A stretch of 21,971 bases of DNA from a virus: the IMG/VR virus record IMGVR_UViG_3300029593_000033, one strand, 5' to 3'. Shown piece by piece: positions 513 to 21,971 of this stretch; the first letter of the stretch is position 1, and every line of letters begins with the position of its first letter. The position numbers and the translations under genes are program-made. The notes under the pieces were generated by a model. It made no database searches and was not told the DNA's origin. It was given only the letters and a program-made list of their open reading frames with translations.

Positions 513-674
513 ATGGGAAGAAAGATTTTAAAAGATGATGAAAAAGCTGTTCGCATTACAATCACAATTGACAAGGCAACTGCTGAACTTGTGGAAAAAT
601 ATGCAAAGATTGAAATGTTGCCAATTTCAAGGCTGATTGCCCGAATACTTAAAAGGCATTTTGAAATGAAATAA
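513..674 (+). CDS. Ribbon-helix-helix (CopG/Arc/MetJ-like) DNA-binding protein of 53 aa. Candidate transcriptional regulator or antitoxin-like partner of the upstream gene.
   Basis: MGRKILKDDEKAVRITITIDKATAELVEKYAKIEMLPISRLIARILKRHF: an N-terminal beta strand with alternating residues followed by two helices. The RBS GGGGGG lies 3-8 nt upstream. The start is 10 nt after the upstream stop, so the two genes are translationally coupled. Confidence 0.55.
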   Translation: MGRKILKDDEKAVRITITIDKATAELVEKYAKIEMLPISRLIARILKRHFEMK

Positions 675-680
675 AAGAAA

Positions 681-709
681 GCCCCGCCATTCAGCGGGGT
701 TTCTGTTTA
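681..709. terminator. Bidirectional intrinsic terminator (CCCCGC-cattca-GCGGGG, then TTTCTGTTT). It sits between the convergent plus-strand module and the minus-strand lysis genes.
   Basis: A 6-bp GC stem with a 6-nt loop. T-rich flanks on both strands. Confidence 0.6.
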
Positions 710-883
710 CAACATATTACTTGAAGTCAAAATGAAAAAAATTTTTACTTTCGTTGCACATATTATCAATTGCATTTGCATTTGTCAAGATATGATTGAA
801 AGATTTTATCATTTGCAATATAGTCCCGCACTGTTTTTGGCTGTGGAATTCTTCCTGAAGTTATCGGGCAACAGGTCAAAGGC

Positions 884-16040: not shown

Positions 16041-16071
16041 ATAAAAAAGAAGGGGCGGTGTTTCCCCTTCC
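16041..16071 (-). terminator. Intrinsic terminator for the minus-strand early/middle operon.
   Basis: GAAGGGG-cggtgttt-CCCCTTC stem-loop followed by a 7-nt U tract on the minus strand (A7 at 16042-16048). Lies 22 nt after the MazG-like stop. Confidence 0.65.
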
Positions 16072-18892: not shown

Positions 18893-18913
18893 AGGGGCGG
18901 GGTTTCCGCCCCT
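18893..18913. other. Perfect 8-bp GC hairpin (AGGGGCGG-ggttt-CCGCCCCT) between the first and second genes of the operon.
   Basis: Read directly. On the minus transcript it has no U tract, so it is not a canonical terminator there. On the plus strand it is followed by a T-rich segment. Confidence 0.5.
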
Positions 18914-18918
18914 GTGTT

Positions 18919-19299
18919 TTAATACTTCGCCAACATTTCCTTCATAAATTTTGCATCTTTTCCTTCTGCTTCATATTCTTTGATTGTTTCTTCAATTGCC
19001 TTTTTCATTTCCGCTTTTTCTTCTTCGCTGATTTTTGGGGCTTCAGGCTTTTTCAACTTTTCACCTTTCATATTTTCACCCCTGAAAAAATGTGCAACTT
19101 CTTCATCAGTCAAAAAGCGAATTCCATTCATTGCCAAGAAGTCTTTGTTCACCTTTGCTTCTTCATAAGAAACAAAAACCAAATCTTCTTTTGTGCAATT
19201 TAAACCACCTTGACAATGTGGGATTAATGCACCTTTAGTGTTTAACATTCTTACAACACCACCATTGCAATCAATAACATTTCCAATATATTTTTTCAT
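18919..19299 (-). CDS. Hypothetical 126-aa protein. It is the first gene after the duplicated early promoter.
   Basis: ORF with an acidic/K-rich C-terminus. Confidence 0.35.
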   Translation of the reverse strand: MKKYIGNVIDCNGGVVRMLNTKGALIPHCQGGLNCTKEDLVFVSYEEAKVNKDFLAMNGIRFLTDEEVAHFFRGENMKGEKLKKPEAPKISEEEKAEMKKAIEETIKEYEAEGKDAKFMKEMLAKY

Positions 19300-19324
19300 T
19301 TTGATTTCCTTTCATATCTGTTGA

Positions 19325-19395
19325 ACATATCTATTATATACACCATATATTTTTAAAAGTCAACATATTTTTTCATATTTTTTCATATTTATTCA
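19325..19395 (-). promoter_or_regulatory. Sigma70-like promoter on the minus strand: TTGACT, 17 nt, TG-TATATAAT. Upstream are two phased ATATGAAAAAA repeats. This 30-bp module is near-identical to the one at 21566-21598.
   Basis: The reverse complement of 19325-19395 reads GTGAATAAATATGAAAAAATATGAAAAAATATGTTGACTTTTAAAAATATATGGTGTATATAATAG. Confidence 0.55.
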
Positions 19396-20562: not shown

Positions 20563-21498
20563 TTACATTTCCCCTTGTAATAATTCATAAGACGACTGCG
20601 GGAAGTCCGCATCTGTGAAAATAAGGTCTTCCGCACCAACTTCAACATCTTGAAGCCATGCTGACTTTGAACCGAATTTTTCCATGTATTCTTTGAAGAT
20701 GTTTTCCGCCTGTGCAATCTGCTTTTCACCTAATCGCCAAAGGTCGGGGCATCTATCCTTCAAAAACACCTTCAGGGCTGTTTGTGGCAATTCTCTATTC
20801 ACAAAAACCGCCATTGTCATCAAATCTTCTGTTCCCCTCATGGATTCCCAAAAGACAATCTGTTCATCTGTTCCATAAACAGGCAATTCACTATTCAAAG
20901 CAAACAAAACCGCTCTTTTATAATATATCAATTGAAGGTAAACCCTGAAACTGAAAAAGTATTGTGAAACAAAGCTTGCAAGCGGGCTTTTTTTCGTTTT
21001 CAAGAATGTTTTCAAATCCAAGATTGAATTTTGTTTCAGGTAGTCAATGCGGGCTTTTCTCTTGATGCCGTCTTCAGTCCAAAAGATTGAAACTTCAGGG
21101 AAACCGCCTTGAAATATATTGCAATCAAGCAATTGCCCTTCTTCTTTCAAATATTCGCAAATCAAATTGAACTTCTTGAATTTTGCCTGTGAAATCACTT
21201 CCAATGTTTGGGCTGATTTCCAAATCCTGTATTCTGAACAATTTTTGTTCAATACCTCTATTTCAGGCGGTGTGACTTTGAATTTGTTGTGGAAATTTTC
21301 GCCTTCCAATATCATTGCATGAAATATTTTGCCATCTGTCATTGCTTCGCTTGGCTTTTCTTCCCGCAATGGGTTCATGTTTGAATTGAACCAATAAAAT
21401 GTTGGGTTGTCTAATATGTCCCTAATTCCTGAAGAACTCAATCTTTTCTCATTGTGATAAACTTCATCAGGCAAATTGAAATATATTCCATCTTCCAT
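20563..21498 (-). CDS. RecB-family PD-(D/E)XK exonuclease (RecE/Cas4/DUF3799-like).
   Basis: Motif I GKIFHAMILE, motif II RIDYL, motif III ILDLKT and the QxxxY motif YLQLIYYK. The N-terminal YH...LSSSG is typical of phage RecE-like proteins. GAGGTG RBS. Confidence 0.6.
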   Translation of the reverse strand: MEDGIYFNLPDEVYHNEKRLSSSGIRDILDNPTFYWFNSNMNPLREEKPSEAMTDGKIFHAMILEGENFHNKFKVTPPEIEVLNKNCSEYRIWKSAQTLEVISQAKFKKFNLICEYLKEEGQLLDCNIFQGGFPEVSIFWTEDGIKRKARIDYLKQNSILDLKTFLKTKKSPLASFVSQYFFSFRVYLQLIYYKRAVLFALNSELPVYGTDEQIVFWESMRGTEDLMTMAVFVNRELPQTALKVFLKDRCPDLWRLGEKQIAQAENIFKEYMEKFGSKSAWLQDVEVGAEDLIFTDADFPQSSYELLQGEM

Positions 21499-21529
21499 TT
21501 TTGCACCTCAAAATAATGTTGAAAACAAA

Positions 21530-21563
21530 TCCTTTATAATTCCCATTTTTTTAATTGTCAACA
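21530..21563 (-). promoter_or_regulatory. Early promoter on the minus strand: TTGACA, 17 nt, TATAAA. It drives the exonuclease operon.
   Basis: The reverse complement of 21530-21563 reads TGTTGACAATTAAAAAAATGGGAATTATAAAG. Confidence 0.55.
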
Positions 21564-21565
21564 CC

Positions 21566-21620
21566 TAATATGAAAAAATATGAAAAAGTATGTTGACAAA
21601 TTAAAACAATTAGTGTATAT
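21566..21620 (+). promoter_or_regulatory. Early promoter on the plus strand: phased A-tract repeats ATATGAAAAAATATGAAAAAG, then TTGACA, 17 nt, TG-TATATA. It drives the coiled-coil/RHH operon and diverges from the minus-strand promoter.
   Basis: Read directly. The two -35 hexamers form a 9-bp inverted repeat TTGTCAACA / TGTTGACAA 27 bp apart. Confidence 0.55.
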
Positions 21621-21660
21621 ATTAAAATGTATTTAATTTTTAACATGGAAGGAAAACACA

Positions 21661-21971
21661 ATGAAAGATTTTCAAGCAATAGTTCAGCCCATTGAAATCA
21701 AAGCAAGGGTTTATCTCAACAAAATGAATGAAGCCAAAATTGAAAATGAAGCTGACAAGGAAAATGCGGTGATAATGTTGAAAGAAATTTCTGACTATAA
21801 AAAAGCAATAAAGAAACAGGAAGATGAACTTTCATCAGATGCAAAGAAAGAACTTGCAGAAATAAAGGCAATGTTTAATGAACCCAAATCATTTTTGAAT
21901 GATGCTGAAGAAATTGTTCGTGGCAAGATAAATCATTTCTTGAATGAACAAAAAGCAAGAATGGAAGCTGA
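21661..21971 (+). CDS. 5' part of a 240-aa plus-strand coiled-coil protein. The ORF continues in frame into bases 2-502 across the circular junction. Function unknown. It is the first gene of the plus-strand early transcript.
   Basis: ATG at 21661 is preceded by GGAAGGAAAA and by a sigma70-like promoter (TTGACA 21592-21597, 17-nt spacer, TATATA 21615-21620). The reading frame is continuous with ORF 14..502 via the terminal repeat. Confidence 0.6.
   Translation, partial: MKDFQAIVQPIEIKARVYLNKMNEAKIENEADKENAVIMLKEISDYKKAIKKQEDELSSDAKKELAEIKAMFNEPKSFLNDAEEIVRGKINHFLNEQKARMEA
21882..21971. repeat. Second copy of the 90-bp terminal repeat (the same sequence as 1-90).
   Basis: Exact identity with bases 1-90. 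Confidence 0.9.

Follow-up and report, generated by a model that had tools for sequence, protein, structure and literature searches.

In the window, the whole 21,971-nucleotide stretch of viral DNA analysed here, a 30-nt module (ATATGAAAAAATATGAAAAA[A/G]TATGTTGAC) was found in two copies, at 19359-19388 (-) and 21568-21597 (+). We propose that the module is composite, with an UP-like element of phased A-tracts interleaved with subsites for the RHH protein of the phage, and we give this reading a probability of about 0.5. Taken alone, an UP-like function of the A-tracts is likely in view of their placement, and binding of the RHH protein to the TATG blocks between the tracts is a tentative proposal, with odds somewhat short of even.

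Genome context, module copies and predicted promoters

The two ends of the window are identical (positions 1-90 and 21882-21971, 90 bp); thus, the window represents one complete genome of 21,881 bp, which is either circular or terminally redundant. Phage hallmarks were recognised in it, namely a large terminase (phrog_38, E 2e-40), an endolysin and a weak tape-measure match. Most of the structural proteins had no match to any PHROG family, and a whole-genome megablast against 50,697 deposited phage records found no known phage. The features on which the analysis is based are as follows.

21661-21971 and then 91-502 across the junction (1-90 duplicates 21882-21971), plus strand: first gene of the P_R operon, 240-aa coiled-coil protein; weak match to phrog_10477 (E 3e-5), syntenic in all relatives
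513-674, plus strand: second and last gene of the P_R operon, RHH protein of 53 aa; PHROG Arc-like repressor (E 2.5e-5), ribbon VRITITID
676-704, plus strand: strong intrinsic terminator ending the P_R operon; -16.6 kcal/mol, z = -5.4, stability reached by none of 200 shuffles
18919-19299, minus strand: first gene downstream of P_M, 126 aa, unassigned function; heads a run of small genes that includes HTH_39-type and XRE-type proteins
20563-21498, minus strand: first gene of the P_L operon, RecE/exonuclease VIII-like PD-(D/E)XK nuclease (DUF3799); phrog_412 (E 3.8e-31), PF12684 in homologues
19359-19388, minus strand: module copy 1 (site 1), ATATGAAAAAATATGAAAAAATATGTTGAC, upstream of P_M; identical in the relatives L084, L108 and L109
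21568-21597, plus strand: module copy 2, ATATGAAAAAATATGAAAAAGTATGTTGAC, upstream of P_R and in the upstream region common to P_L
21593-21621, plus strand: predicted P_R core, TTGACA at 21593-21598, 17-nt spacer, TATATA at 21616-21621; orthologous promoters in relatives
19335-19363, minus strand: predicted P_M core, TTGACT at 19363-19358, 17-nt spacer, TATATA at 19340-19335
21533-21561, minus strand: predicted P_L core, TTGACA at 21561-21556, 17-nt spacer, TATAAA at 21538-21533; kept in 20 family loci

Because the genome is circular or terminally redundant, the P_R operon consists of only two genes, those for the 240-aa protein and the RHH protein, and the hairpin that ends it is able to serve both strands. 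The 240-aa gene contains four in-frame 27-bp tandem repeats (89-221, +) encoding EELEALKQA units; its counterparts in relatives are 219-225 aa long, which indicates that the repeat number varies. On the minus strand, DUF968/HNH-like and YopX-like genes follow the RecE-like nuclease gene. Directly past the 126-aa gene is a GC-rich hairpin (GGGGCGG...CCGCCCC, 18893-18913); since no U-run accompanies it on the minus strand, which is the one transcribed, it may serve RNA stability or processing instead of termination. A proper minus-strand terminator is located at 16049-16070, before the small-terminase gene.

As the preliminary description had reported, the 30-bp module stands at two oppositely oriented promoters, and the copies differ only at position 21, which is A at 19359-19388 (-) and G at 21568-21597 (+). 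However, the reported extent was too short, since the similarity runs for 58 nt, through the -10 box (19332-19389 against 21567-21624, 83% complementary), and forms the longest inverted repeat of the window. Identity within this repeat is uneven, with 29/30 positions matching in the module, 9/9 in GTGTATATA at the -10 box and 10/17 in the spacer between the -35 and -10 boxes. A genome scan for further copies, which had been suggested as a check, returned only the two matches at up to three mismatches, compared with 0.00 expected from 100 dinucleotide shuffles, and the 10-mer ATATGAAAAA occurred four times in exact form, each time inside one of the two modules. The pattern A5-N5-A5 had four matches (three distinct places, two of which are the modules), fewer than the 6.7 expected, and is thus not a compositional habit of the genome. 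A chance or compositional origin of the module repeat was thus ruled out by the shuffles, the 10-mer and the A5-N5-A5 counts.

Relative to P_R, copy 2 places its A-tracts at -55..-50 and -45..-41 and its TATG blocks at -59..-56, -49..-46 and -39..-36; at P_M, the A-tracts occupy -45..-40 and -55..-50. Each module holds three (A/G)TATG blocks at a spacing of exactly 10 bp, the last of which abuts the -35 box at both P_R and P_M, and we assume in what follows that these blocks would be the operator subsites. Additional ATATG motifs on the minus strand of site 1, starting at 19348, 19330 and 19317, are not kept as a set in relatives; they belong mostly to the conserved leader or ribosome-binding region and were therefore excluded as operator sites.

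The pattern TTGAC[AT]-N16-18-TAWWWW, applied as a regular expression, matched only four sites in the window, three of which are P_L, P_R and P_M, within the two intergenic regions. Each module continues directly into TTGAC(A/T)-17 nt-TATATA, after which come a ribosome-binding site and an ATG 30-40 nt downstream. P_R and P_M were missed by a generic consensus promoter scanner, which accepts only T as the sixth base of the -10 box, whereas both have TATATA. P_M is predicted to drive the 126-aa gene and further minus-strand genes downstream. P_L, which was absent from the preliminary description, points leftward toward the RecE-like exonuclease operon and stands back to back with P_R. Only 31 nt separate their -35 boxes, and the module fills nearly this whole gap and is read by P_L as T-tracts; thus, three promoters, not two, are possibly served by the module. 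Across the phage family the back-to-back layout recurs as GTCAA...TTGAC, with 10-37 nt of AT-rich sequence in between. No terminator-like structure was found upstream of P_M, which makes it an internal promoter whose unit is not necessarily separate. The earlier suggestion that the module co-regulates two separate transcription units is therefore plausible as to co-regulation, but the promoters are three in number and transcription from upstream could enter the unit at site 1.

A leader motif, TGT..(T/C)AACA, is present 5-7 nt past the -10 box at all three promoters of the window (21522-21532 and 19318-19326 on the minus strand, 21628-21645 on the plus strand). It was found at 25 of 78 family promoters, compared with 1.2% of control windows. 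It could act as a conserved operator, with the invariant HTH_39 protein as one possible ligand, or could belong to the 5' end of the transcript. A further sequence, TTGACA-17 nt-TAATAT at 760-788 (-), faces the terminator hairpin about 60 nt away and may specify a small RNA just beyond the 3' end of the RHH gene, or may be due to chance. The segment 704-740 (+) resembles the leader of the 126-aa gene.

Tract positions and intervening letters among relatives

The window belongs to a large, syntenic family of human-gut phage contigs, 20-28 kb in length. At least 186 exonuclease homologues were detected at E <= 1e-10, many of them on contigs of 20-28 kb. A scan of the viral collection with the exonuclease as single protein returned only one contig, 95-97% identical, and distant relatives were recovered by protein search together with an alignment-based scan. 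Viral, genome and metagenome collections and read-archive assemblies supplied the DNA around approximately 25 distinct family members, whose exonuclease identity ranges from 99% to 37%. The alignment of the 220-aa proteins was too divergent to serve as a seed for more loci. Metagenome bins of such contigs were assigned twice to Gastranaerophilaceae/-ales and also to gut Alphaproteobacteria and Acutalibacteraceae, assignments that disagree. Across the family the gene order is kept: the RHH gene, the 220-240-aa gene, the divergent intergenic region, the exonuclease operon, and one to three more promoters 1-5 kb downstream.

Runs of A5-8 stand directly 5' of the -35 box at the rightward and downstream promoters of every lineage. 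We profiled 42 P_R and P_M promoters from about 20 lineages. Among the 25 P_M promoters, the frequency of A was 0.8-0.9 at -45..-40, 0.6-0.9 at -55..-51 and 0.7-0.8 at -65..-61, and the 17 P_R promoters peaked at the same positions (0.5-0.9). Troughs of 0.1-0.3 were observed at -47/-46 and -57/-56, and the autocorrelation was highest at lag 10 (0.58) and rose again at lag 20 (0.27). The centres of the tracts coincide with the UP-element sites of the alpha-CTD, which are centred at -43, -53 and -63 and involve the narrow minor grooves of A-tracts (PMC3326320); PMC4390567 summarises UP subsite structure and consensus. The composite pattern A5N5A5N5TTGAC was present at 37 fetched loci, all of which belong to family members (37/37), and at none of the loci that have a distant exonuclease homologue alone. 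What related promoters keep across these lineages is thus the position of the tracts, not their exact sequence, and the letters between the tracts change. Since position and 10-bp phase are kept at the alpha-CTD centres while the letters vary, the UP-element option of the preliminary description is supported for the A-tracts, and their assignment to an ordinary UP-like, phased A-tract element, a known promoter feature, is well grounded at the level of sequence.

The same register bears on a pure operator array, in which the 10-bp repeats would serve solely the RHH protein or another phage regulator and the A-tracts would be AT-rich spacers without UP function. Arrays of the ParG type consist of 4-bp boxes with AT-rich spacers that are read indirectly (PMC3413123), and CopG sites lie one helical turn apart (PMC2724298); in the window, the third repeat extends into the -35 box, and the P_R operon includes the RHH gene. 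However, the A-tracts hold the alpha-CTD register with the -35 box in lineages with quite different ribbons and letters, and the register is kept even by a single A7 tract between two -35 boxes (L085, L181). A pure operator would not need such a register, and we regard this reading as improbable.

A non-transcriptional role was weighed on similar grounds. AT-rich 10-bp iterons in a divergent intergenic region resemble replication origins, and the two copies are inverted and 2.2 kb apart, as homology arms for inversion of the intervening 2.2-kb segment would be. No replication initiator was recognised in the genome, a finding that can be counted on either side. However, every copy in every lineage stands at the same distance from a -35 box, and some genomes have three or four copies, all co-oriented with the downstream genes. 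An iteron-type origin, for which iterons beside or bound by a cognate initiator and a neighbouring unwinding element would be expected at a single locus of the replicon, was disfavoured on these points, with two to four copies per genome each tied to a -35 box. An inversion substrate was disfavoured because all relatives share one gene order, with no sign of inversion. Together with the possibility that another regulator (XRE or HTH_39) reads the repeats, which is taken up below, such roles are very improbable.

Several relatives contain near-identical pairs of downstream promoters, in which 50-70 nt including spacer and leader are alike. Their positions relative to the exonuclease start are as follows.

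L085: +1488 and +2595
L098: +969 and +3091
L008: +1675 and +2846
L184: +1906 and +3656

These pairs indicate that intragenomic copying or homogenisation of promoters recurs in the family.

The letters between the A-tracts are lineage-specific, and all promoters of one genome switch together. Three main types were distinguished.

TATG (variants TGTG, TACG, CATG): window clade, L098, L099
TAATT: L092, L093, L095, L100, L086
TATT: L097, L014, L087, L011

In seven genomes of the window clade, with exonuclease identity of 83-99%, TAATATGAAAAAATATGAAAAA is the longest invariant block of the divergent intergenic region, whereas the adjoining spacer between the -35 and -10 boxes has diverged by approximately 50%. 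The same contrast between a constant module and a diverged spacer was observed at P_M in this clade.

These observations were set against a pure UP-like phased A-tract element, which would strengthen the promoters through the alpha-CTD and DNA curvature and in which TATG would be read by no phage protein; the uniformity of the letters would then result from tandem-repeat slippage, promoter duplication, gene conversion or block inheritance. The conservation of tract position and phase in all lineages alongside variable letters, and the match of the tract centres to -43, -53 and -63 (PMC3326320), are what such an element predicts. The variants TGTG, TACG, CATG and TAAG are tolerated in L098 and L099, two lineages (L184, L006) depart from the covariation described below, and the phage encodes a RecE-like recombination function, which could homogenise promoter copies without any binding protein. 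On the other hand, degenerate UP elements leave unexplained the 22 invariant nucleotides, including both TATG blocks, in seven genomes whose spacer is about 50% diverged, and recent gene conversion predicts even identity, whereas the module matches at 29/30 and the spacer at 10/17 positions. The pure UP-like element also gives no account of why the ribbon of the RHH protein, unlike the helices of HTH_39 or XRE, tracks the letters. Thus, we consider it unlikely, although it deserves weight.

The RHH protein and a proposed two-layer mechanism

Every lineage encodes an RHH protein in the same place, after the 220-240-aa gene. The RHH protein at 513-674 is of the CopG/Arc class by sequence, a class of small proteins in which a beta-ribbon at the N-terminus precedes two helices. 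Its Pfam matches (DUF6364, DUF6290) are below the cut-offs, and a family profile built from 19 RHH proteins matches CopG (1b01/2cpg) at E 6e-5, with VRITITID aligned to KRLTITLS, so that the predicted DNA-reading residues R14, T16 and T18 correspond to R4, T6 and T8 of CopG. Positions 2, 4 and 6 of the ribbon are the base-contacting ones in RHH proteins (PMC3413123). Within the window clade the ribbon is invariant, while the remainder of the RHH protein differs at up to 10 of 53 residues.

We compared ribbon and letters in about 18 lineages, in which approximately 3-5 independent switches have occurred; the association as given ignores phylogeny. The residues at ribbon positions 2, 4 and 6 and the corresponding letters are as follows.

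R/K-T-T: TATG or TGTG; window clade, L098, L099
Q-T-T (Q-S-T in L005): TAATT or TAAT; L092, L093, L095, L086, L005
N-S-S: TATT; L097, L014, L011
T-T-T: TAAT[TC]; L013
R/K-C-T: TATAT or TATGC; L085, L181
Q-C-R: G before the A-tract in 5 of 8 blocks; L008, L009

Exceptions were observed, in that L184 combines Q-T-T with TTATTT, and L006, L086 and L085 are mixed. The grouping of ribbon with letters cuts across both exonuclease similarity and overall RHH similarity. L092 and L093 have 78-80% exonuclease and 70-72% RHH identity to the window, yet carry Q and TAATT, and L098 and L099, with 61-66% exonuclease and 49-54% RHH identity, keep R/K and TATG. The combination of N-S-S with TATT is common to L097 (72%) and L014 (37%).

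The preliminary description had named the XRE and HTH_39 proteins as alternative regulators; the letters track neither. In HTH_39, the putative recognition region (TRLSAIIFxLRK) hardly varies from one module type to another, and in XRE the helix is not the same among genomes with a common ATATG module; these proteins were thus disfavoured as readers of the repeats. Its other candidate, the RHH protein acting at iterated operators, gains circumstantial support from the invariant letters, their joint switching and the tracking by the ribbon, which falls short of proof. The RHH gene lies in the P_R operon, an arrangement as for a repressor made from the promoter that it controls. It is also located only about 0.9 kb from P_R, so that co-inheritance through mosaic recombination could mimic co-evolution.

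On this basis we propose a composite mechanism of two layers, in which promoter activity, use of the alpha-CTD, RHH binding and repression are predicted from the positions, conservation, covariation and homology described above. In the first layer, the A5-6 tracts at about -43 and -53, with a third at -63 in many relatives, would form an UP-like, intrinsically curved element, whose narrow minor grooves would recruit the alpha-CTDs of the host RNA polymerase and make P_R and P_M strong; the same block, as T-tracts on the other strand, may also serve P_L. In the second layer, the TATG letters would probably be major-groove subsites for dimers of the CopG-like RHH protein. The TATG blocks are centred at -37.5, -47.5 and -57.5, spaced by one helical turn and shifted by half a turn relative to the tract centres, and the geometry of this offset would place the major groove of TATG on the same side as the minor groove of the A-tracts. 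RHH dimers arrayed cooperatively along that face would block the -35 box at P_R and P_M together with the alpha-CTD sites, and in the divergent region they would occlude P_L too. Because the RHH protein is made from P_R, its binding would constitute negative feedback on the whole non-structural gene set, and this feedback would shut off P_R, P_L and P_M together.

Two published observations argue against the second layer, as CopG, with the same R-T-T triad, recognises GCA(C/T)/TGCA and not TATG, and transplanting the ribbon triad alone did not transfer specificity (PMC3413123). In addition, inter-tract letters composed of A and T only easily yield short palindromes by chance.

A more specific version of the composite reading, which is speculative, holds that the module is a dual-reader element. 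One small autoregulated protein would silence three promoters by occupying their UP elements, and ribbon residue 2 would co-evolve with the base 5' of each A-tract. In such a code, Arg or Lys would go with G and Gln or Asn with T, and the pairing would diversify between related gut phages in the manner of immunity specificities.

The analysis adds well-documented phased A-tract, UP-type promoters in a family of uncultured gut phages and provides a usable family promoter model, TTGAC(A/T)-17 nt-TATAWA preceded by A-tracts at -43, -53 and -63. Should the second layer be true, the module would be a compact natural system in which repressor subsites are interleaved with alpha-CTD sites of RNA polymerase. 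The natural variation in the pairing of ribbon residue and DNA letter could then inform rules of RHH specificity, and the lineages would offer possible orthogonal repressor-promoter pairs for engineering. The A-tract layer is already known in kind; an interleaved UP element and operator with a readable ribbon-to-letter code would be new, a prospect about which we are guarded.

Comparison with known promoter and operator systems

The module resembles the UP elements and phased A-tracts of sigma70/sigmA promoters, such as E. coli rrnB P1, in that the tracts lie 5' of the -35 box with centres at -43 and -53 (and -63 in relatives) and a 10-bp phase. The UP elements of E. coli rrnB P1 were reportedly characterised by Estrem and co-workers in 1998 and 1999 (as cited in PMC4390567), and Aiyar and co-workers are said to have studied promoters with upstream A-tracts in 1998. 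Phased upstream A-tracts are also exemplified by the plc promoter of Clostridium perfringens and by the Alu156 promoter of phage SP82 in Bacillus subtilis. Unlike in these UP elements, the letters between the tracts are here no less conserved inside a clade than the tracts themselves, and from one clade to another the whole set is exchanged; furthermore, the block is common to two predicted back-to-back promoters.

CopG of pMV158 represses its own promoter (Pcr) by cooperative binding of four dimers to a single face of the DNA; their major-groove sites are spaced by one turn, and the operator overlaps the promoter (PMC2724298). Both proteins are small RHH proteins (45 aa for CopG and 53 aa here) with an aligned ribbon and the same R-T-T triad, a likeness that is at profile level only (E 6e-5). 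The CopG repressor gene is co-transcribed from the controlled promoter, and the gene arrangement is the same here. However, the core site of CopG is a 13-bp pseudosymmetric element with TGCA/GCA(C/T) boxes, whereas the candidate sites here are direct TATG repeats that are separated by A-tracts and lie mostly 5' of the -35 box.

The ParG and omega RHH arrays share with the proposed array multiple short direct boxes, AT-rich spacers, cooperative coating by dimers and several promoters per protein (PMC3413123). They differ in that the period of ParG is 8 bp, compared with 10 bp here, and in the ribbon sequences of both proteins. The omega array has a period of 7 bp.

In the Arc/Mnt immI region of P22, a phage RHH repressor likewise acts at closely spaced divergent promoters, and the RHH protein of the window falls in the PHROG family of Arc-like repressors. 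The operator of Arc consists of one inverted repeat of 21 bp lying across the promoter cores, and it thus differs from the upstream direct-repeat array of the window.
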